From an uncultured Acidimicrobiales bacterium (GTDB taxonomy: Bacteria > Actinomycetota > Acidimicrobiia > Acidimicrobiales > SHLQ01), in the NCBI GenBank assembly GCA_964562985.1, contig CAZLWE010000002.1, positions 1,630 through 65,629 on the forward strand: a DNA stretch of 64,000 nt, read 5' to 3'. The position numbers and the translations under genes were made by a program. The notes beneath the pieces were generated by a model. That model had not been told where the DNA came from. It did not search any database and saw only the letters and a program-made list of their open reading frames with translations. Shown in pieces: positions 1 through 38,738 of this stretch (position 1 is its first letter; every line of letters starts with the position of its first letter).

Positions 1-627
1 GACTGCGACACGAACCCGAATCTGGGTCTGTCGCTCGGCGTCGGCGACATCGAGACCGAGCGCCTTCTGTCATTGCGCGACCAGATCGACGAAGGCGAAC
101 GCGAACATGCCGCCTCCTGGGACGACATACTCGATGCGTACGGCACCGACGCTCCTGACGGGGTTCGGCTCACCGTGGTCAACCGCATCGACAATCCCGA
201 ACCGGATTGACCGTGATGTGGGTTATCCGCTGAGCAGTTGCTCAGCTCCGTACCAGAATCCGAAACCGTCATCGTTGCCGACCTCGAGGCAGGCATCGGC
301 ACCCTCACCAGGTTGCCCGAAGGTTCCGTCGACTCAACCCTTGTGATCGTCGAGCCGACACCACGTTCCATCGACGTCGGCCAGCGGGCCGTGCTCGTGG
401 CCACCGAACGAAACCAGGGCCAGATCACGGTTGTCGCAAACAAGGTCGCCAACGACGAGGACGAAGCCCGAGTGCGTAGCGCGTTCGACCAATACGACGT
501 GCTGACCATTCCCGACGACCCGGTGGTCGTTGCCGCCGATCGTCGAGGCGAATCTCCAATCGACGTCGACCCGGACGCACCAGCCATCGCAGCAATTGGT
601 TACCTTGCCAAGCGCATAGCGCAGTGA
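1..627 (+). CDS. CooC/MinD-family P-loop ATPase, 5'-partial. The frame is interrupted by two in-frame TGA codons (208-210, 214-216)
   Basis: Frame 1 upstream reads DCDTNPNLGLSLGV..VVNRIDNPEPD. The same frame downstream reads CGLSAEQLL..VIVADLEAGIGTLTR..LVIVEPTPRSIDVG..VVANKV. Both halves resemble a single CooC-type ATPase. Confidence 0.6.
208..246 (+). other. Candidate selenocysteine recoding site: TGA-CCG-TGA followed by a 7-bp hairpin
   Basis: TGA at 208-210 and 214-216. Perfect stem GCTGAGC (229-235) / GCTCAGC (240-246) with an AGTT loop, starting 12 nt after the second TGA. Confidence 0.3.
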
Positions 628-9112: not shown

Positions 9113-12100
9113 GTGTCTAGGACCATATGGAAACTATCTGCGCGGGCCATCGCCTTACTTCTGGTGGCGAGCACTCTCGCGGTTGTCCCCTATAGCGAAT
9201 CGCTGGCAGCTCAAGACCAGCACCCACGTTGGGAATGTGACGGCACGCCGATCCTGATGCGTGGTGGGGTCTTCCACTTCATTCTTCCGGACCCCGCCGT
9301 ACCAGGGAACCTGATCATCGAAGCGATCCCGGGCACGAGCGGCATTTTCAACTCGACCGCCTATGACCCGACCACCGACTGGGTCTACGGCGTCGGCAGA
9401 GTCGGAGGCGTACGAACCGTCCGCGCCTACGACGCCAACGGCGACACGGTGTTCGACACTCCCATTCAGGCGCCTTACCCCCAAGACGCCAACCAGTTCG
9501 CCGGAACGGTACTCGGCGACGGCCGCTACATCGTCCACTCGGTCGGCGCTGGCAACGGTACGGGTTGGTTCAACGGCGAGCGATGGAACATGTGGTCGAT
9601 CGACCCGCTCACCGGTGCCGCCACCCACATCGGATCAACCCCAGTGAACCTCGCTGACTTCTCCTACAACCCACTGGATGGCTTCATCTATCAAGTGGTC
9701 AACCGTCAGCTCTACAAGTTCAACCCCAACGACGGTTCGATCACGAGCACACCCATGCCAGCCGCGTTCCCCAACGGAAGCTTCGGCGCGTCGTGGTTCG
9801 ACGCCGCCGGCAACCTCTTCCTTTTCCGCAACAACCCAGGAGACATCTTCCGAGTCGACCCGAACGATGTAGCCGCCTGGGCCGAGGTCGGCGAGCCCGG
9901 TTCGAACGGAGGAACCGATGCTGGCTCATGTGTGAGTTCGATCGATATCAAGAAGGACGTGATCGACGGAGCCGGGAACGCCGTGATTCCCGGGGACCGG
10001 GTCTACTCGCCCGGAGACACCGTTGCCTACGAGATCACCCTGATCAACAACGGCCTTCCCACCCAGGATCGCATCGTCGACCTCTGCGACGTGTTGCCCG
10101 GCGATGGACGAACCTTCACCGGCAACTGGACATCGACCGACCCGAACACCATCGTGACCAGCGGCGGCGCCGCGGGTGATACCGACGTCTGCTTCCAGGC
10201 CGAGATGCCTTCGAGCCTCTGGACCGACCCCGACACCCCTGGCGCAGCCCCGACCGTGCTCACCGTTGACGTGCTGCTCGCCGACGACATCGTGCCGGGC
10301 GAATACGAAAACCAGGCCACCCTCGACTTCGATCAGGACGGCACCGTCGACGTGCTCTCTGACGACCCGGGCGACGGCAGCGATCCTCGAGATCCGACCA
10401 CGATCGAGGTGCTCGGCGCCTTCACCGTGACCAAGACCGTCGAAGGCCACCCGGTCTCGAACGACACCGACTCGTTCCCGGTTACCCTCACCTGCACCAC
10501 CGCCGACGGCAGCACGCATAGCGTCGCCGCAGGTTCGATCTCCGATGCGGCCACGGGCGCGCCGTGGCCGGGAGCAGCTACCAATTCGTTCACGTTCGCC
10601 AACGGCGATGACGTCCGCATCGACGACCTTCCTCCAGGTACGACGTGCACCGTCACCGAGGCCAACAACACCGCCTACACCGCAACGGTTGCCGTGGCTG
10701 GAAGCGGTGGTGGAACGGGCGCTTCTGGAGCGATCTCTACAGGATCGTTGAGTCCCGCTCTGGTCAACGACAACTGCCAGGACGGCGAAGCGAGCGGATT
10801 CGTTCCGTTCAATCTTCAGGTTCGCAATACGACGTCGGCTGCCACCGACTGGGAAGTGATTTGGCGCAACCGGCCCTACTCGACGATTCCAAACCTCAGC
10901 ACCGGACCGTTCACTCACACCGTCATCCCAGCTGCTGGCGGCCTCTTCGATCACGTATTCACCGGCACCGGCACGCTGAACCCATTCGGCAACATCACCA
11001 TCGTCGGCAGCCCGCCCGTCCCGACCGGCGCAGACAGCGGCTGCGGCGACGTCGAGAACTACAGCGGCATCTCCAGCCCCGCAGGTGACGCCGCAAGCGG
11101 TGACGGTGTCGAGAGCAGCACCGCTGACATCACCGCCGACGAAGCGCTCGAGAACGAGAACGTGGCGTTCACCAATACCACCTCGACCATCCGGATTCGA
11201 AAATCGAGTTCGTCAGGAGGTGACCTGCCTTTAAGCGACGATGGTACGTTCACTTTCGATATCACTTGCGCCAACGGGCTCAGCGAAACGGTCACCATCA
11301 CCACCACCGGTGGAGGCACCACGATCAGTTACCCCGCTACGCCGCTCATCGGGTCGGGGGTCGACTGCACGATCTCGGAGAACGTGCCCCCAGGCTGGAC
11401 ACTCACCACCGCGAACGACGTGGAGGTCACCACCGACTCCGCCACCCCACAGAACGCCTCTTTCCAGAACGAGCGCGCGCTCGCAGATCTCACCGTGACC
11501 AAGACGATTCTCGGCCTACCCGACGGCGCCGACCCAACCGATTCCAAGTTCGGCCTCACCGTTACGTGTACCGGCGGATTCGACCCCGACCCATACACCG
11601 TGCTCGGAGCCTTCGCCGTTGGCACGCCGTTTGTTGTTGAGGACCTTCCTGTGGGTGCCGAGTGCACGGTCACTGAAGACCCAGCGGCCGGTTTCAACAC
11701 TCGCTATGAGCCAGGCCAGGTCGTTACGATCGCGAGCGATGGCAGCGAGGTGGATGTCACCAACAGCACCGGGTCTCTCATCATCGAGAAGGACGCTGTT
11801 GCACCAACCTCCCACCCGATCGACCCGGTGATCGACGTCGACTTCACCCTCGAGTGCACCTTCCCCGACGGGTCCAGCACCTCACAGAACTTCACGGTTG
11901 CTATTGACTCGCTGACAGCGACCGGGGCGAATGGTGGAGTGAGCCACACCGATATCGGCGTGCTACCACCGGGAACGGTTTGTGAGGCCACGGAGACCGC
12001 CGCCCCAGCTGGCTGGACACTCACCAGCCCTGACACGGTCACGCTCAACGTCACCGCCGACAACCCAGAGCCAACCGCTACCTTCGAGAACACCCGCGAT

Positions 12101-15100
12101 ACCGGTTCGCTGACCGTCACGAAAGCCGTCGACGGCGTGCCGGCAGGACTCAACTTCGACGACGAGCTCTTCGCGGTTGACGTCTCGTGCTCCGGCGGAT
12201 TCACCGTAGACCCCTACATCATCACCGGGCTCAGCGTCTCGGTGAACTCCCCGTTGGTCATCGACGACCTCCCGACCGGCGCGGACTGCACCGTTACCGA
12301 AACCCCTGACCCTCGATTCGATGCGACCGTCGGTTCCGGTTCGGCCACGATCACGACGGATGGCGAGACGGTTGCGCTCTCCAACACCACCTCCTCGTTC
12401 GATATCACTAAGACAACGGCCGCCAGTCCGCTCGTGGCCACGAGCGATGGAACGTTCAACTTCTTCGTGACGTGCAACAACGACGGGGTCGAAGTGGTCA
12501 ACACCGTCGTGTCGGCAACGACCACTGGCGGCACCGGAAACATCGCCGCCGCCGACTTGCCGCTCGTCCCCGCTGGATCGACCTGTTCGGTCATCGAGAT
12601 CGTTCCGGCCGGATGGACCCTCACCAACCGAGCCGGCGGCACCGAAACCGGTGACGCCGGAATCGAGTTCGTCACCAGCGCGGAAGGAACCTCACTCTCG
12701 TTCGAAAACACGCTCGATACCGCAGCGCTCAACATCACCAAGGACGTCACCGGTGTGGCCGCAACCCCAGCCCTCGAAGCTGAGGCCTTCACGGTGACCG
12801 TCGAGTGCACTGGCAACTTCCCTGGCGGGGTGTTTACCACGACGCTGAGCATCGTCGAGGGCGCGCCGATCAACGTGCCGGGAATCCCGGTTGGTTCAGC
12901 GTGCACTGTCACCGAAGCCGACGACAGCCGATTCCTCACCACCTACTCGCCAGACCAATCCGTCTTCATCGCAACCGAAGGCACAACCGTGGCGATCGAG
13001 AACGAGACCAGCGTCTTCTCCATTTCCAAGGAAACGTTCGTGGATGATCCGACGGTCGTCGAGATTGACGGCACGTTCGAGTTCACAGTCGAGTGCACCA
13101 ACGACGGGGCGATCGTGTTCACCGACACGGTCACCATCACCACGATCGATTCGCTCGGCGAGTGGGACGCCTCTCCATTCCTTGCGCCGGGCACCGAGTG
13201 CTCGGTAACGGAGAGTCTCCTCGAAGGCTGGACGCTCCAAGAGTCGACGACTCAGACCACTACCACCGACGGTTCAACCGCTGAACAGATTGTGTTCACG
13301 AACGTACGCGACGTCGCCGACCTGACGATCACCAAGACCCTGCTCGGACCGGGCAGCGAAGGCTTCGTCAACCGCAACTTCACCGCAAATGCCACCTGCG
13401 TTGGCGACTTTGCAACAAGCCCAGTGGTTGTTGAGGACATCGTGTTCTCCTCGACGACACCGGGGGTTATTCCCGACCTCCCGACAGGTGCTGTTTGTAC
13501 CGTGACCGAGGAATTCGAGAGCCAGTTCCAGACGTTGTACGCGCCGGACATCGGTGATGGATCCGCAGCCCAGGTGACGATCGAGTCCGGTGGCACCGAG
13601 GCGGGCATCTCGAATGTGACGGGAGCGCTTGCCGTGCACAAGTCGACCATCGGCCCGACCGAACATGGCGAAGACCTCTTGGCGGATTTCGAATACAACT
13701 TTGTGTGTCAGGTCCCCGGCGCACCAAATGGCGGGACCATCACCTTCACCGAAACCCTCTTTACCGAGATCCTGGAGGTTGACGACCTCTCCGGCGGTCA
13801 AGGCGTTGGTGTACTGACCTATACCGACCTACCGCCGCTCGCGAACGGCACCGTATGCACGGTTACCGAAGTCGTGCCGGCCGGATGGACCTTGACCACA
13901 CCGAACTCCTTGACGATCACGGCTACCGATACCCCCGAACCGCCGAGCATCGACTTCATCAACGAGCGGAACGCCGGTGCGCTGACCATCACCAAGAGCC
14001 TCGTCGGAGTACCCGAGGGCGTCGACCTCGGCGACGAGCCGTTCACGGTCGATGTCACCTGCACGGGAGGCTTCACGAACAACCCCCTCATTCTCGCTGA
14101 CCAGAACGTCACCGCGAACACGCCCTTGGTGATCGACAACCTTCCGACCGGCGCGGAGTGCTCAGTCACCGAGGATGTCGACCCGCGCTTTTCTTCCGCC
14201 GTGTCGGCTCCGGTCACTATCGATGACGACGGTGAAGAGATCGTCGCAACCAACACCACGAGCACCTTGACGATTGCCAAGACCACCACCGGCACCACCG
14301 CACATCCGGTCGACCTCGACGCCACGTTCACCTTCGCGGTGAACTGCGGTGCGGCCTTTACCGGCGCAGCGACTCTCACGACCACTGGCCAGACCGGTGC
14401 GTGGGACACCACCACTACCCCGCTACTTCCACCAGGCACCGAGTGCACGGTGGCCGAGGAGAACATCCCCACCGGATGGAGCCTCACGACTCCGAACGAC
14501 GTCGTGGTCACGACCGGCTCCGAAGCAATCGTCGAAGCGGCCTTCGTCAACGATCGTCAAGTCGCCAACCTCAACATTCTCAAGACGATTATCGGCGAGC
14601 CCCAAGACCTCTCCGATGAACCATTCACCGTCAACATCAGTTGCATCAATGGCTTCAACGTCGAGCCGTATCTCATCGGGCCACTCACCATCACCGAGAA
14701 CGCCCCGATCGCCATCGACGATCTTCCGGTTGGCGCGGAGTGCACGGTGTCCGAGGAAGCCGACGTCCGCTTCCTTCCGAGTTTTAGCCCCGACGACCAG
14801 GTTGGCGTTATCGCCGAAGACGGCGCGACCGTCGACATCGACAACCGCACCGCAGCGCTCGAGATCACTAAGGAAGTCAGCTCCGAACCAGGCCAACCGG
14901 TCGATCTGACCGGCTCATTCGACTTCTTCGTTGACTGCACAAACGGCACCACTGCCAATGTCACGATCGACATCGTCGACGGCGTCGCCGAAACCCTCGA
15001 GTTTCCCGACCTACCGCTCGTTCCCGACGGTACGGCGTGCACCGTCTCCGAAACCGGTATTCCTGCTGGCTGGACTCTGACGACCCCGAATGATGTCGAG

Positions 15101-18034
15101 GTCGTGGCGAACTCGGGTAACCCGGGCTTCGTCAGCTTCGAAAACGAGCGTGACACCGCCGACCTCACGGTCACCAAGACCGTCATCGGCGCACCTACCG
15201 GCCTCGACCTGGTCACCACGGTCTTCACCGTCGACGTGAGCTGTTCGGGCGACTTCGATGCCTCACCACTCGAGTTCCTCGACCAGGAGATTCGCCACGG
15301 CGAGACGCTCACCTTCCCGAACCTTCCGACCGGCTCGCTCTGCACGGTCATCGAAGACCCAGACCCCCGCTTCGCGGTGACGACCACTCCAGCTGACGCA
15401 GTTGGCGCGGGGGTCGTGATCGATGCCGACGGCGAGGATGTCGCCATCGTGAACGCCACCGGCGAGATCATGATCGTGAAGAACACGCAGGTGGCCTCGG
15501 GACTTCCAGTCGACGTGACCGAGTCGTTCGACTTCATCGTCAACTGCGGCACCACCTATACCGGCACCCACTCGGTCACGACCGACACCCTCACCAGTGC
15601 CACCACCGCGACCGGATTCCTCCGCTACGACGACCTGCCTGCGCTACCTGATGGAACAGCATGCACCGTCACCGAACAAACTCCGCCCGCCGGGTGGACT
15701 CTGGTCTCGGCGAACGACGTGCCTTTGATCGTGGACTCCACTGGCGTCGTCACTGCCTCCTTCACGAATGAGCGTGAGACCGGAGCGCTGACCGTCACCA
15801 AGACCCTTGACGGCGTGCCTGCAGGAACCGACCTCAACGGCGAACTCTTCGATATCGCGATCACCTGCGCCGGAGGGTTCTCAACGGCCTCTCACGTCGT
15901 GAACGGACAGATTTCGGCCGACACCGCATTCACACTCGAACAAATACCAACCGGCGCTAGCTGCTCCATCACTGAAACCGCAGACCCGCGCTTCGCCACG
16001 AGCATCGACCCGGCAGCCACGATCACCACCACCGGCCAATCCATCGAAGTCACGAACACGACGAGCACGCTATCGATCGCAAAGGTGACCGATGGTCCGA
16101 GTACCCACGCGATCGATCTCGACGCCACGTTCATCTTCGACGTCACCTGCACAGCTCCCGATGGTGCGGAGCTGTTCGACGGAGCTCAAACCATCACTAC
16201 TGACGCACAAGCTGGCTCTTGGGTAACTCCGGCCACGCCGTTGCTACCACCGGGCAGCGAATGCAGCATCGTTGAACAACCGCTGGCCGGTTGGACCCCA
16301 ACAACCCCATCCGCTGTGACGGTCGAAACGGACTCGGCAAGCATCGTCGAGGCGGCCTTCGTCAACCGTCGAGACACCGGCGAATTGACGGTTGCCAAGG
16401 TTCTCGAAGGAGTACCTGCCGGAGTCGACCTCAACGCCGAGACCTTTGACGTCGAGGTGACCTGTTCGGGAGAGTTCACCACCCCGGACATCCTCGTTAG
16501 CGGGCAGATCTCGGTCGACAGTGCCTTGATCATCGCTGACCTGCCCACGGGCACCGAGTGTGCCGTGCTCGAAGCTCCCGACGCCCGATTTATCACCACG
16601 ATCGATCCGGCGGCGACACTGACGAGCGCTGGCGAAACGGTCAACGTCACAAATACGACCAGCACATTGTCGATCACGAAGGTCACCGAGGGCCCGACCA
16701 CGCACCCGTTAGCGCTAGACGCCGAGTTCCTTTTCGATGTCACCTGCACCGCAGCCGATGGCACTGCACTGTTCTCAGGCACCCAAGCCATCACCACCAC
16801 TGACCAGACGGGTTCCTGGGCAACGCCCGAAACGCCGCTCGTCGCGCCAGGTACCGAGTGCACCGTTGTCGAACAGGCACCCCCGACGGGATGGACGAAC
16901 ACCAGCGGCGACACCCAAATCGTTTCGACCGACTCCGCGGAGATCGTTGACGCGGCGTTCACCAACGTACGAAATACCGCAACGCTCACGATCAACAAGA
17001 CCGTGACTGGTGCCCCGGAGGGAGTGAACTTCGACGACACGCTCTTCGATGTCACTGTCACGTGCACGGGCGACTTCACAGAAACCGAACACCGTGTCAC
17101 CGGCCAGGTATCGGTGAATGCACCCTTCGAGGTTCCCGACCTGCCAACGAACGCCGAATGCATCATCGTCGAAGCCGACGACGCTCGCTTCCAAACCACC
17201 TACTTCCCCGAGAGCGCCACGACCGACGCCGCCGAGACGGTTGTCGGAGACGACGGCGCGATCGTCGCGATTACCAACAGTACGGGGGCGATCATCGTCG
17301 CTAAGCAGACCATCGTGTCGGCGCTGCACCCGATCGACCCGGTTGCCGAGTTCACGTTCACCATCGACTGCGGAGCCGTCTACAACGCTGACCACACCCT
17401 GACCACCGATCTTGTCGGAACGGGAGGAGCGAGCGGCCTGATCTTGTACAGCGACCTGCCGTTGATCCCCGAAGGCACCTCATGCGCCGTGACCGAGCAC
17501 GACGAAAACCCGGAGTGGGTCTTGGTTACCGACCGCACGGTCGACTTGGTCGCAACGAGTGCTAGCCCGGTAACAGCGAGCTTCACCAATCAGCGCACCG
17601 AGACATCACTTACCATCACCAAACAGGTTGAAGCCCCGGACTCCGTGGACTTCAGCGAAGAGGTCTTCGAGGTCATGCTGACCTGTTCGGGCGGATTCAC
17701 CGAAGACAGCTACGAGATCGTGGGTGAATTTTCGGTGCTCTCGCCGTTGACCATCGATGAGCTGCCCCTTGGCGCCGAATGCTCCGCCGTCGAAACTCCA
17801 GATGACCGATTCGCCGTCGACAATCTCACCGGAGCAGTGGTGCTCGGTGACTGGCCAGCAACCATCGACATCCTCAACGAACTCCTCGAATCCGAGACCA
17901 TCACGGCGTCGCCACCAGCACTCGCCTTCACGGGCGCCACCATCGGAACCCTCGTGTGGATCGCGACGATCATGCTGGCTGGCGGAATGTTCGTGCTGTT
18001 CGGCAGCCGTCGCCGAGAAGAACCCGAGCTCTAG
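9113..18034 (+). CDS. Giant (2,973 aa) cell-wall-anchored repeat surface protein / adhesin
   Basis: GTG start preceded by GGAGAAG. Signal peptide, then an N-terminal propeller-like region, then a DUF11-like module (DIKKDV..YENQATLDFDQDG). About 23 Cys-pair domains follow, then a C-terminal LAFTG + TM + RRREE sorting signal. Confidence 0.9.
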   Translation: MSRTIWKLSARAIALLLVASTLAVVPYSESLAAQDQHPRWECDGTPILMRGGVFHFILPDPAVPGNLIIEAIPGTSGIFNSTAYDPTTDWVYGVGRVGGVRTVRAYDANGDTVFDTPIQAPYPQDANQFAGTVLGDGRYIVHSVGAGNGTGWFNGERWNMWSIDPLTGAATHIGSTPVNLADFSYNPLDGFIYQVVNRQLYKFNPNDGSITSTPMPAAFPNGSFGASWFDAAGNLFLFRNNPGDIFRVDPNDVAAWAEVGEPGSNGGTDAGSCVSSIDIKKDVIDGAGNAVIPGDRVYSPGDTVAYEITLINNGLPTQDRIVDLCDVLPGDGRTFTGNWTSTDPNTIVTSGGAAGDTDVCFQAEMPSSLWTDPDTPGAAPTVLTVDVLLADDIVPGEYENQATLDFDQDGTVDVLSDDPGDGSDPRDPTTIEVLGAFTVTKTVEGHPVSNDTDSFPVTLTCTTADGSTHSVAAGSISDAATGAPWPGAATNSFTFANGDDVRIDDLPPGTTCTVTEANNTAYTATVAVAGSGGGTGASGAISTGSLSPALVNDNCQDGEASGFVPFNLQVRNTTSAATDWEVIWRNRPYSTIPNLSTGPFTHTVIPAAGGLFDHVFTGTGTLNPFGNITIVGSPPVPTGADSGCGDVENYSGISSPAGDAASGDGVESSTADITADEALENENVAFTNTTSTIRIRKSSSSGGDLPLSDDGTFTFDITCANGLSETVTITTTGGGTTISYPATPLIGSGVDCTISENVPPGWTLTTANDVEVTTDSATPQNASFQNERALADLTVTKTILGLPDGADPTDSKFGLTVTCTGGFDPDPYTVLGAFAVGTPFVVEDLPVGAECTVTEDPAAGFNTRYEPGQVVTIASDGSEVDVTNSTGSLIIEKDAVAPTSHPIDPVIDVDFTLECTFPDGSSTSQNFTVAIDSLTATGANGGVSHTDIGVLPPGTVCEATETAAPAGWTLTSPDTVTLNVTADNPEPTATFENTRDTGSLTVTKAVDGVPAGLNFDDELFAVDVSCSGGFTVDPYIITGLSVSVNSPLVIDDLPTGADCTVTETPDPRFDATVGSGSATITTDGETVALSNTTSSFDITKTTAASPLVATSDGTFNFFVTCNNDGVEVVNTVVSATTTGGTGNIAAADLPLVPAGSTCSVIEIVPAGWTLTNRAGGTETGDAGIEFVTSAEGTSLSFENTLDTAALNITKDVTGVAATPALEAEAFTVTVECTGNFPGGVFTTTLSIVEGAPINVPGIPVGSACTVTEADDSRFLTTYSPDQSVFIATEGTTVAIENETSVFSISKETFVDDPTVVEIDGTFEFTVECTNDGAIVFTDTVTITTIDSLGEWDASPFLAPGTECSVTESLLEGWTLQESTTQTTTTDGSTAEQIVFTNVRDVADLTITKTLLGPGSEGFVNRNFTANATCVGDFATSPVVVEDIVFSSTTPGVIPDLPTGAVCTVTEEFESQFQTLYAPDIGDGSAAQVTIESGGTEAGISNVTGALAVHKSTIGPTEHGEDLLADFEYNFVCQVPGAPNGGTITFTETLFTEILEVDDLSGGQGVGVLTYTDLPPLANGTVCTVTEVVPAGWTLTTPNSLTITATDTPEPPSIDFINERNAGALTITKSLVGVPEGVDLGDEPFTVDVTCTGGFTNNPLILADQNVTANTPLVIDNLPTGAECSVTEDVDPRFSSAVSAPVTIDDDGEEIVATNTTSTLTIAKTTTGTTAHPVDLDATFTFAVNCGAAFTGAATLTTTGQTGAWDTTTTPLLPPGTECTVAEENIPTGWSLTTPNDVVVTTGSEAIVEAAFVNDRQVANLNILKTIIGEPQDLSDEPFTVNISCINGFNVEPYLIGPLTITENAPIAIDDLPVGAECTVSEEADVRFLPSFSPDDQVGVIAEDGATVDIDNRTAALEITKEVSSEPGQPVDLTGSFDFFVDCTNGTTANVTIDIVDGVAETLEFPDLPLVPDGTACTVSETGIPAGWTLTTPNDVEVVANSGNPGFVSFENERDTADLTVTKTVIGAPTGLDLVTTVFTVDVSCSGDFDASPLEFLDQEIRHGETLTFPNLPTGSLCTVIEDPDPRFAVTTTPADAVGAGVVIDADGEDVAIVNATGEIMIVKNTQVASGLPVDVTESFDFIVNCGTTYTGTHSVTTDTLTSATTATGFLRYDDLPALPDGTACTVTEQTPPAGWTLVSANDVPLIVDSTGVVTASFTNERETGALTVTKTLDGVPAGTDLNGELFDIAITCAGGFSTASHVVNGQISADTAFTLEQIPTGASCSITETADPRFATSIDPAATITTTGQSIEVTNTTSTLSIAKVTDGPSTHAIDLDATFIFDVTCTAPDGAELFDGAQTITTDAQAGSWVTPATPLLPPGSECSIVEQPLAGWTPTTPSAVTVETDSASIVEAAFVNRRDTGELTVAKVLEGVPAGVDLNAETFDVEVTCSGEFTTPDILVSGQISVDSALIIADLPTGTECAVLEAPDARFITTIDPAATLTSAGETVNVTNTTSTLSITKVTEGPTTHPLALDAEFLFDVTCTAADGTALFSGTQAITTTDQTGSWATPETPLVAPGTECTVVEQAPPTGWTNTSGDTQIVSTDSAEIVDAAFTNVRNTATLTINKTVTGAPEGVNFDDTLFDVTVTCTGDFTETEHRVTGQVSVNAPFEVPDLPTNAECIIVEADDARFQTTYFPESATTDAAETVVGDDGAIVAITNSTGAIIVAKQTIVSALHPIDPVAEFTFTIDCGAVYNADHTLTTDLVGTGGASGLILYSDLPLIPEGTSCAVTEHDENPEWVLVTDRTVDLVATSASPVTASFTNQRTETSLTITKQVEAPDSVDFSEEVFEVMLTCSGGFTEDSYEIVGEFSVLSPLTIDELPLGAECSAVETPDDRFAVDNLTGAVVLGDWPATIDILNELLESETITASPPALAFTGATIGTLVWIATIMLAGGMFVLFGSRRREEPEL
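10421..17890 (+). repeat. In-frame array of about 23 domain repeats alternating between two types
   Basis: Type A: LTVTK..G.P.G....F.V.V.C.GGF........LP.GAECTVTE..D.RF. Type B: L.I.K......HP.D....F.F.V.C........PL.P.G..C.V.E..P.GWTL. The two types alternate strictly. They resemble DUF5979/SpaA-type surface domains (family name from memory). Confidence 0.8.
17921..18031 (+). other. LAXTG-type (class E sortase-like) cell-wall sorting signal
   Basis: LAFTG (17921-17935), followed by the hydrophobic segment ATIGTLVWIATIMLAGGMFVLFG and the charged tail SRRREEPEL. Confidence 0.75.
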
Positions 18035-19302
18035 CTAGCGGCTGCAACGACGAGCGACGCGAGATCTGGAGCGTCACCGGGAAGCCCAAAGAACTCCATG
18101 ACATAGAGCGAGTCGTCTACTTGGGTCGCTGCGAGACTCGCCTGCACGTCGAAGATCTGCCCGCTCAATAGCTGTTCGATCTCCACATCGATAACGACGA
18201 CCTCATGACCTTCTGCCTCAACCACCTCGGTCGCCGCAGTCTGCGGATCGAAGGCATCGTTCATCGACAGCTCTACAGGAAGACACGACGCGCCACGCTC
18301 GACAAGCTCAGCGAAGGCATCCTCGGCTTCTGCGGCGCTGGCGTATCGCTCGAAGGATTGCTCGATCTGGCTTGAACCCGCACCTTGGGTAAGTAGCACC
18401 CACGACAAGCCGTCTGCTCCAGCGACCGTCTGGGAATCCAGGCACGGCCGCAGACCGCTCGGCCCGTCGAATCGCAGCGGGGTGATGAGCAGAAAATCCT
18501 CGGGGAGGTCGTCAGCCTCAAGGGCGGCGTCGCGGTACTCCTCCGCGAGTTCGTCGAAGTCGACGGCCTCCGACAGCTCCGGAGTGGGCCGGTCGAAGAA
18601 CGCCGAAAGCACCTGTGCTTCGAGCGCGTCAGCCGAAGATGTTGGAGCGAGGACCGCGATCGTGAGCGCTGTCCGACCCTGGACGACCGTGGTGATTCGC
18701 TGCGCGATGTCCTCCGCGCGAAATCCCGCCGAAACGGAGAAGCCATACACGCGGGACTCGGCGACGAATTCGCTTGGTACCTCGGCGGCAACTGCGATAG
18801 GGGCCCCCACCCCGTCACCGAAGTCGTATCGGACCCTCGGCAACGAAAGTTCTTCCAAGCGGCCGACGTTTATTTGATCGCATTCCGCAGCGGACTCGCC
18901 ATTCAGTGCCTCGACCGCAATCTGGGCTTGGTCGCCAGATTCATAGACCCTCGCCTCGGCGGTGATTATCTCGACAATCGCATCCGACCCCGCTGCAAAC
19001 CGAGCGAGCGAACGGGCTTGCAGCGCCGAGGGTTCGGGAATACCACAGATATCGGGCACCGGTTGGGGAACGGTCAATCCCGGTGTCCACTCGCCATTGA
19101 CGTCGCCGAGGCGCCCGACCCACGCTCCAGCCTCAAACGCGAGCCCACCTGGCCCGAAGCCAGCTTCGCGGAACTCGAGGGCGCTTTGTCTAAAGTCGGC
19201 ACCGCGGTCTATTTGCTCAACGGCGCAACCGGTCAACACCACAGCTGCACCCACGAGCCAGTTGATCCAGCGGGGGCCTCGATGTCGGCCCGAGAATCTC
19301 AT
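18031..19302 (-). CDS. Hypothetical secreted lipoprotein with repeated Cys-containing modules
   Basis: Lipobox VVLTGC near the N-terminus. Internal modules such as ..C.DS......G..W......AGSSQ...ERYASAAEAEDAFAELVERGASC. No family recognised. Confidence 0.6.
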   Translation of the reverse strand: MRFSGRHRGPRWINWLVGAAVVLTGCAVEQIDRGADFRQSALEFREAGFGPGGLAFEAGAWVGRLGDVNGEWTPGLTVPQPVPDICGIPEPSALQARSLARFAAGSDAIVEIITAEARVYESGDQAQIAVEALNGESAAECDQINVGRLEELSLPRVRYDFGDGVGAPIAVAAEVPSEFVAESRVYGFSVSAGFRAEDIAQRITTVVQGRTALTIAVLAPTSSADALEAQVLSAFFDRPTPELSEAVDFDELAEEYRDAALEADDLPEDFLLITPLRFDGPSGLRPCLDSQTVAGADGLSWVLLTQGAGSSQIEQSFERYASAAEAEDAFAELVERGASCLPVELSMNDAFDPQTAATEVVEAEGHEVVVIDVEIEQLLSGQIFDVQASLAATQVDDSLYVMEFFGLPGDAPDLASLVVAAAS

Positions 19303-38023: not shown

Positions 38024-38217
38024 GATTCCGTGCCGGCTCCGTAGAGCACTTCAGGGAGTACCACGGCTTGAGCGACGTAGGTGGTCGTGCCATCGAAGGT
38101 GAGACTTGGCGAGCCGTAGAGCACGTACCCGTCGGCGAGCGCGTTGGACACTCGCTCGCAAAACGCAGATGTGTCTGGGCCGGTTAGTAGTCGGTATCGC
38201 AAGGGTGACTCTTCCAT
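38020..38217 (-). CDS. DUF1737-like small protein
   Basis: YRLLTGPDTSAFCERVSNALADGYVLYGSP pattern. 4-nt overlap with the downstream hydrolase gene. Confidence 0.6.
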   Translation of the reverse strand: MEESPLRYRLLTGPDTSAFCERVSNALADGYVLYGSPSLTFDGTTTYVAQAVVLPEVLYGAGTES

Positions 38218-38342
38218 ACGTTGACGCTATCGCCTCGGTCAGGATGCGCTCATCGACACCTACGCCTCGGCCGAGAACTCGCGGTGAAAAACGCCTCGAC
38301 GCACGTTCTGCTAGCGACTCTCTTTTTATAGGCTCCACCTTC

Positions 38343-38738
38343 ATGAACTACGCAGGCGACCTGTCTCCGACCGATGCCCACAATCTCCTTGTGGAGAAGC
38401 CAAACGCCGTGCTCGTCGACTGTCGTACGACGGCCGAGTGGTCCTTCGTCGGTGTTCCTGACATGCCGGGGACACGACTCGTCGAGTGGACGAGCTGGCC
38501 AACCGGTGCGCTGAACACCGATTTCGTCACCGCAGCCTCCGAGGGCCTGGAGGCCGACCAACCAATCGTCGTGATCTGCCGATCGGGCGGACGCAGTGCT
38601 GCCGCCGGAAGCGCCCTCGCTGCCGCGGGCTTCACTCAAGTCTTCAACGTGCGTGAGGGCTTTGAGGGCCATGTCGACGCCAGTGGACACCGCAGCGGCG
38701 GATGGCGCGGTGCCGGGCTGCCCTGGCGTCAGTCATGA
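38343..38738 (+). CDS. Rhodanese-domain sulfurtransferase
   Basis: Start at ATG 38343. Active-site loop VVICRSGGRS. Confidence 0.8.
   Translation: MNYAGDLSPTDAHNLLVEKPNAVLVDCRTTAEWSFVGVPDMPGTRLVEWTSWPTGALNTDFVTAASEGLEADQPIVVICRSGGRSAAAGSALAAAGFTQVFNVREGFEGHVDASGHRSGGWRGAGLPWRQS

Follow-up and report, generated by a model that had tools for sequence, protein, structure and literature searches.

The gene with which the analysed stretch of DNA begins very probably encodes an intact 242-residue CooC/MinD-type ATPase with a U-P-U-C-G motif, in which both in-frame UGA codons are decoded as selenocysteine (Sec) by SelA, SelB, SelD and tRNA-Sec with the aid of a single hairpin, and we hold this reading with considerable confidence. 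Our analysis establishes the recoding signature, made up of the correspondence between UGA and Cys, a covarying hairpin, the Sec machinery and selection downstream of the UGAs. It likewise establishes the conserved pairing of the gene with a Cys-less paralogue and its linkage to hypF and [NiFe] hydrogenase. That selenium is present in the product and that one SECIS element serves both codons are inferences, for which there is no protein or transcript evidence.

The window, by which we mean the whole stretch of 64,000 nucleotides that was analysed, starts at G000:C2:1630 and spans G000:C2:1630-65629 of a 131-contig draft genome (G000) that is 96% complete. The ATPase gene begins 102 nt upstream of it, with an ATG at G000:C2:1528, and the first 34 of its 242 codons, which begin with MKIAVVGKGGSGKT and contain the deviant Walker A motif, lie just outside the window at G000:C2:1528-1629; codons 35-242 and the stop, assigned from frame 1 and from homology, occupy positions 1-627 on the plus strand, where all of the gene's features described below also lie. 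The first-pass annotation had seen two in-frame TGAs at the Cys-x-Cys site of a CooC-like ATPase, and we confirm both: frame 1 is open from the first base of the window to the true stop codon of the gene, the TGA at 625-627, except at TGA 208-210 and TGA 214-216, which are separated by a single CCG. The first of these UGAs (codon 104) aligns with the first Cys of a C-x-C-C-G motif and the second (codon 106) with the second motif Cys, each being read as Sec in our proposal, and they are followed by a TGT at 217-219 that encodes Cys107, the invariant third Cys of the aligned motif. Further 3' of both UGAs, the D-L-E-A-G of the Walker B / switch II strand (codons 128-132, positions 280-294) is invariant in homologues. 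The product therefore reads MKIAVVGKGGSGKT ... NRIDNPEPD-U-P-U-CGLSAEQLLSSV ... VADLEAGIG ... KRIAQ-stop. Residues 7-14 (GKGGSGKT) match the deviant Walker A consensus GKGGxGK[ST], whose signature lysine is residue 8, a feature of CooC-type (MinD/SIMIBI) ATPases that PMC9164220 defines. Directly downstream of the gene (region 630-1166) we observed the C-terminal part, about 120 aa, of a serine-hydrolase ORF of the beta-lactamase family (795-1166), which looks truncated; this downstream neighbourhood is not conserved among relatives.

The initial description of the product as a CooC-like ATPase stands for fold and motif, and does not stand for CooC in the strict sense. In Pfam the product matches CbiA/AAA_31, and since NCBIfam and Pfam return only generic MinD/CbiA-type matches below family cut-offs, there is no curated model for the family. 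A search of 5.8 billion proteins yielded 738 homologues at E<=0.001, the best 120 of these 738 being 225-290 aa long and up to 63% identical. Among the matches listed, the names are 'CO dehydrogenase maturation factor' or 'AAA family ATPase', and the named sources are Acidimicrobiia, Acidimicrobiales and Iamia. The motif in a 31-homologue alignment is G-C-P-C-C-G-L-S, with P105, C107 and G108 invariant and C104 and C106 at least 90% conserved, and all five motif residues are invariant in an alignment of 36 sequences. Both TGAs fall on the C104 and C106 columns. By sequence, the best solved structure is that of CooC1 from Carboxydothermus hydrogenoformans (3KJE, E=1.8e-14, residues 1-218), and in the HMMER alignment the C-P-C of homologues lies on the C-Y-C metal motif of 3KJE; the Cys anticipated at both columns is thus near-invariant in homologues and aligned with a metal site. 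A structure was modelled with AlphaFold2 for the closest Cys homologue (P0002, 63% identical, pLDDT 90.3), not for the Sec protein itself. In this model the motif loop precedes helix 111-117, and a Foldseek search with it returned MinD 1HYQ (E=2.4e-13) and CooC1 3KJE (TM 0.73, a TM-score that no other of the ten top-ranking fold matches equals) as best matches, with FleN and nitrogenase Fe proteins ranked beside them. As far as a predicted structure of a Cys homologue can establish it, the ATPase has a MinD/CooC fold.

CooC1 (PDB 3KJE/3KJG/3KJH/3KJI) is the ATP-dependent Ni-insertion factor of Ni,Fe-CO dehydrogenase. It has in common with our protein the deviant Walker A with signature Lys8, the D-x-E/x-A-G strand and a C-x-C on the aligned loop before the same helix, whereas identity is only about 26% and our protein has a C-x-C-C-G motif in which Sec takes the place of two Cys. 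The surroundings differ as well, in that the gene described here has a Cys-less paralogue as its partner and is associated with hyp and hydrogenase genes, a hydrogenase-maturation context, and its genome appears to lack the client of CooC: TIGR01702, the CooS/AcsA Ni,Fe-CO dehydrogenase model, has no match in the 96%-complete genome, so the ATPase is CooC-like and not CooC proper. Nor is the product a HypB/G3E protein, as it matches MinD-type models only.

The two UGA codons are shared widely among relatives. All six orthologues found in 42 genomes of the bacterium's own family (70-82% identical to the query) have two TGAs, and none has one or none. Among 401 genomes of the order, 43 have an orthologue, with two TGAs in 27, one in 12 and none in four, and 400 genomes from the rest of the phylum, besides our own, contain 12 orthologues, with two TGAs in five, one in four and none in three. 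The order and phylum sets are sub-samples, and the carrier genomes are kin, so these counts do not represent independent events. When 34 order-level loci were read as DNA, 22 proved to be U-x-U-C-G (x being P, L or A), eight C-x-U-C-G and four C-P-C-C-G. Cys, single-Sec and double-Sec forms therefore coexist at the motif codons, the kind of interchange that the first-pass annotation had proposed looking for in orthologues. No U-x-C form was present among these 34 loci, the TGA lies at the second position in all 12 single-TGA loci read in the order and the phylum, and codon 106 is the Sec codon in every TGA-bearing orthologue read, C-x-U forms included. The TGA positions are kept in the TGA-bearing orthologues read (30 from the order and 9 from other classes) down to 44% identity. 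The random stops in relatives that would have marked a decaying gene are absent: in the 30 TGA-bearing order orthologues there is no other internal stop, TAA or TAG, but only TGA, and only at the two motif codons. It is this comparison, in which TGA positions and hairpin recur in 30 order and nine phylum orthologues, that supplies the proof, within what sequence evidence can prove, that the pattern goes beyond chance. A sequencing or assembly error that turned TGC or TGT into TGA, conceivable in a 131-contig draft without read-level evidence, retains practically no credibility when the same TGAs stand in independent assemblies of dozens of species, including the single-contig genomes G021, G176 and G287. 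Separately, we observed a CooC-like paralogue (L081, G615:C115:11219-11920, minus strand) that is 41% identical and has a single in-frame TGA in KPG-U-GGLSAGQLL; having one Sec and neither the second nor the third Cys, it may represent a separate Sec-bearing subfamily.

The region beyond the UGAs evolves as a translated one. Nei-Gojobori dN/dS over codons 117-241 is 0.15-0.44 at a dS of about 1 (12 pairs), and in the upstream part 0.06-0.22; judged by these estimates, the half of the gene downstream of the UGAs is under purifying selection. In the short interval from the second UGA to the hairpin (codons 107-110), amino acids are kept and codons vary synonymously, and because the Cys107 codon varies between TGT and TGC among orthologues, this stretch is translated in frame 1. 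We also considered a two-gene reading, with an N-terminal fragment and a C-terminal ORF starting from TTG 238 (codon 114), and rejected it, as codons 107-113 are conserved as amino acids with synonymous variation. Inactivation of a former CooC-like gene by two nonsense mutations would account for two stops within 9 nt, and the truncated hydrolase remnant just downstream (630-1166) could be taken as a sign of such decay. However, it does not follow from that remnant that the ATPase gene is decaying, and a pseudogene is exceedingly improbable given that the TGA positions are kept in the 39 orthologues read without any other stop or frameshift, that the stops fall only on Cys columns and that dN/dS remains low downstream of them. 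The shared TGA forms, the conserved hairpin and the downstream purifying selection together exclude both a pseudogene and a sequencing error.

The SECIS-type hairpin lies within the coding sequence at 229-246, with a 7-bp stem (229-235/240-246) and an AGUU loop (236-239). Its sequence, GCUGAGC-AGUU-GCUCAGC, is separated from the second UGA by 12 nt and from the first by 18 nt, and the perfect stem reported earlier at this place was located exactly. The stability of the single sequence is suggestive and not decisive, as a 58-nt stretch folds at -19.1 kcal/mol (z = -2.4) and 5 of 200 shuffles fold equally well, and an Rfam scan of 150-330 at E<=10 gave only a meaningless snoRNA match and no match to a bacterial SECIS reference. 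When 30 Sec forms are aligned without gaps, 95.2% of the cells of the 7-bp helix are paired, compared with 22-51% when the 3' partners are slid by 1-3 columns. Two stem pairs show compensatory changes (C-G 19 / U-A 9 / U-G 1, and G-C 17 / C-G 4), the observed covariation score was reached by no shuffle, and RNAalifold predicts the identical helix; what had been put forward as a SECIS-like hairpin is thus conserved with covariation. In a single relative with a Sec form (L024) the stem contains a C-A mismatch. E112, Q113, L114 and L115 are encoded by GAG CAG TTG CTC in 30/30 Sec forms, a codon entropy of 0; the mean for 120 other conserved, degenerate columns is 1.18 bits, with only two at zero, and TTG is otherwise a minority Leu codon in the ATPase gene. 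The AGUU loop is invariant in 39/39 Sec forms (30 from the order and 9 from other classes of the phylum) on a stem of 6-7 bp, and in distant Sec forms the stem keeps pairing despite amino-acid change by means of wobble pairs (GGGC/GCUC, GAGC/GCUU). The 12-mer hairpin core is kept in only 2 of 10 Cys forms, the rest changing the loop or breaking the 3' arm. Since the E-Q-L-L amino acids are conserved in Cys forms too and tend to encode a palindrome, the hairpin is partly a by-product of the protein sequence, and what argues for it is the behaviour of the synonymous sites together with the covarying pairs that flank the core. Two all-Cys orthologues, L075 (G449:C19) and L086 (the metagenome contig encoding P0002), still carry the GAGCAGUUGCUC hairpin core, which suggests recent switching between Sec and Cys forms.

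The genome is also equipped to decode Sec. Its lack of the machinery would have refuted the reading as first proposed, and selA, selB, selD and tRNA-Sec were all found above curated cut-offs: one tRNA-Sec with anticodon UCA (65 bits, by aragorn and Rfam), selD at 277 bits, and, next to each other, selA at 390 bits and selB at 283 bits, the latter complete with its C-terminal domain. In the order sample selA is detectable in 38/39 TGA-bearing genomes compared with 272/401 overall, and the sole TGA-bearing genome without detectable selA is 87% complete. A genome-wide reassignment of TGA was considered and ruled out, as TGA terminates 891 of 2188 long open frames in G000; the ATPase gene itself ends in TGA, so TGA normally terminates translation in this organism and recoding is confined to the two motif codons. 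G000 contains a second selenoprotein gene, encoding an fdhA-like molybdopterin oxidoreductase with an in-frame TGA in CNRT-U-HAPS (L082, G000:C11:~38186-38629, minus strand). Its hairpin, GUCGUC-GGUCU-GGCGAC, has a 6-bp stem and a GGUCU loop and starts 12 nt after the UGA, the same spacing as that between the second UGA of the ATPase gene and its hairpin. Like the fdhF/fdhA SECIS elements, the hairpin of the ATPase gene is a short in-gene structure that lies 12 nt downstream of a UGA and carries G-U in its apical loop; unlike them, it has a loop of only 4 nt (AGUU) on a bulge-free stem of 6-7 bp, and apparently serves two UGAs.

How one hairpin might serve two codons can be set out as a model. 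The base of the hairpin would be 12 nt from the A site, as in the fdhA-like gene, when the second UGA occupies it, and 18 nt from it when the first UGA does; SelB on the hairpin would have to reach the A site 6 nt further upstream and then reload within two codons. On the most economical account, Sec arose first at position 106, at canonical spacing, with position 104 recruited later. C-x-U forms are common, and U-x-C forms did not turn up; the ancestral Sec site is therefore probably the second position, and the first probably a later one. In work on E. coli fdhF, the efficiency of Sec insertion reportedly drops as the spacing departs from about 11 nt, and with 18 nt between it and the hairpin the first codon may therefore be read inefficiently. 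It is conceivable, then, that the UGAs are read through without Sec, with Cys inserted by a UGA-reading tRNA or Trp/Cys by near-cognate decoding, or that only the second UGA is Sec and the first is a selenium-dependent attenuator terminating most ribosomes. The distance of the first UGA from the hairpin does exceed the canonical spacing by 6 nt, and the C-x-U forms show that only the second position is universally recoded. Nevertheless, we regard these possibilities as unlikely, for the Sec system is complete and canonical and selA accompanies 38/39 carrier genomes, TGA is an ordinary stop genome-wide, and two TGAs, present in 27/43 order orthologues and placed on the Cys104 column in 22/22 of those read, would be hard to maintain if the first merely terminated translation. 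The first-pass annotation had itself cautioned that two UGAs with one SECIS would be unusual; the concern is a real one, and is answered by these same double-TGA orthologues, all of those read being U-x-U.

Decoding of both UGAs as Sec has partial precedents in bacterial proteins that are predicted to contain two Sec in a UxxU or UxxxxU motif, namely the metal-binding protein NF041115, an FmdB-family protein, a Prx-like protein and TsoB (PMC13188914 Table 1). These share with the ATPase two close UGAs in a short motif, presumably with one SECIS, and differ from it in protein family and in spacing, which is U-x-U (6 nt) here.

As for function, the evidence comes from gene context. A 261-aa MinD-type paralogue without the Cys motif overlaps the start codon of the ATPase gene (ATGA overlap) and is directly upstream in 43/46 loci, and a heterodimer of the two proteins is possible. 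The equivalent loop of this partner has no conserved His or Cys, only GDLPGGTRQ being conserved, so no partner ligand can be proposed. In one distant relative (L072, G588:C15) we observed an in-frame stop in the partner gene (AVQR-stop-SVTAPDG). Divergent from the pair is hypF, an N-terminal fragment at the contig start in G000 and full length in relatives (732 bits against TIGR00143, plus Pfam matches), which also adjoins the closest Cys form. The hyp cluster of one relative (L062, G273:C8:50000-69500, at about 9300-19300) holds hypF, hypE, hypD, hypC and a PadR regulator, with a SIS-domain gene between hypD and hypC, together with four MinD/CooC-type ATPases: the U-x-U form, the Cys-less partner, and C-x-C paralogues with GCTCGGH and GCLCSAH. 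An Opp/Nik-type ABC transporter lies between the ATPase pair and hypF in G021 and G287, its family scores in G021 all being below curated cut-offs. G000 has several CooC-like ATPases, and its [NiFe]-hydrogenase large subunit (C35:5859-7730) adjoins a C-x-C CooC-like paralogue. The hydrogenase is 17-20 kb from the ATPase gene in two contiguous relatives, and is present in 5/6 own-family carriers compared with 8/42 family genomes overall. The association is incomplete in that no hydrogenase was found in one carrier (G003, 90% complete) and three hydrogenase-positive relatives are without the ATPase gene. In the 96%-complete G000 genome the best match to the HypB model TIGR00073 reaches 24 bits against a cut-off of 121, and HypA has no match.

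Our best functional guess, inferred from this gene context only, is a Se-ligated, nucleotide-gated metal chaperone, most likely for nickel, that acts in hydrogenase maturation. In such a scheme selenolates and thiolate would bind the metal at the dimer interface under ATP control; the metal would be nickel and the client [NiFe] hydrogenase, and the role of the missing HypA and HypB would be filled. Nickel is usually delivered to [NiFe] hydrogenase by HypB, a G3E GTPase, together with HypA. Our ATPase resembles HypB in its type of neighbourhood (hypF, hypC, hypD, hypE) and in its proposed role, whereas it is a MinD-type ATPase, not a G3E GTPase, and has selenium in the site. The architectures of CooC and HypB are very similar, both having nucleotide-coupled metal sites (PMC9164220).

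A genuine selenoprotein need not be a nickel chaperone, and the U-x-U-C site could instead form an Fe-S bridge (as in NifH or proteins of Mrp/NBP35 type), bind another metal or act as a selenylsulfide/diselenide switch. We think such a role rather doubtful, though it retains a real chance of being right. It would suit the ranking of MinD, FleN and nitrogenase Fe proteins beside CooC1 in the fold search, the failure to find a Ni-CODH client and the sub-threshold scores of the Opp/Nik-type transporter, and the zinc/cobalt chaperones of COG0523 likewise have a C-x-C-C motif (PMC9164220). On the other side, the best sequence match and the motif alignment both lead to the metal site of CooC1, and the linkage to hypF/hyp genes and [NiFe] hydrogenase is consistent, with HypA/HypB undetected. 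We thus prefer a nickel chaperone, and an Fe-S-bridging or redox role is not excluded. Taken as a whole, our proposal is of an unannotated, widespread selenoprotein family of Acidimicrobiia-like Actinomycetota, in which the ATPase, working with its Cys-less partner, supplies an aerobic [NiFe] hydrogenase with nickel through a U-x-U-C selenolate/thiolate site, replacing HypA/HypB, and in which one SECIS serves two UGAs 6 nt apart. This composite claim is put forward tentatively, our belief in it stopping a little short of the halfway mark.

No CooC/MinD/CbiA-type ATPase and no U-x-U motif is among the 119 prokaryotic selenoprotein families/subfamilies of the May 2026 inventory (PMC13188914, Table 1), and a CooC/MinD/CbiA-type ATPase is absent from the 2016 survey (PMC5029168). 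Full-text literature searches found no description of a selenoprotein or selenocysteine in connection with CooC, hydrogenase, a P-loop ATPase or a metallochaperone. The only NTPase metallochaperone relative in the May 2026 list is a CobW-related G3E selenoprotein (UxxC, PMC13188914), in which Sec likewise replaces a metal-binding Cys; in contrast to it, the protein described here is a MinD/SIMIBI ATPase with two Sec, not one, in a different motif. Gene callers split or truncate the ATPase gene and databases hold only Cys forms at full length, so a hydrogenase-linked selenoprotein has been missed in many genomes.

If our reading is right, the family would add to the selenoprotein repertoire an NTPase metallochaperone with a Se-ligated metal site, and would connect the availability of selenium with the maturation of hydrogenase, and with H2 oxidation, in actinobacteria that live aerobically. 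The coexisting C-x-C, C-x-U and U-x-U forms, together with the fixed hairpin, constitute a natural series on the limits of UGA-SECIS distance, and the same series bears on what selenium offers a metal-transfer site beyond sulfur.
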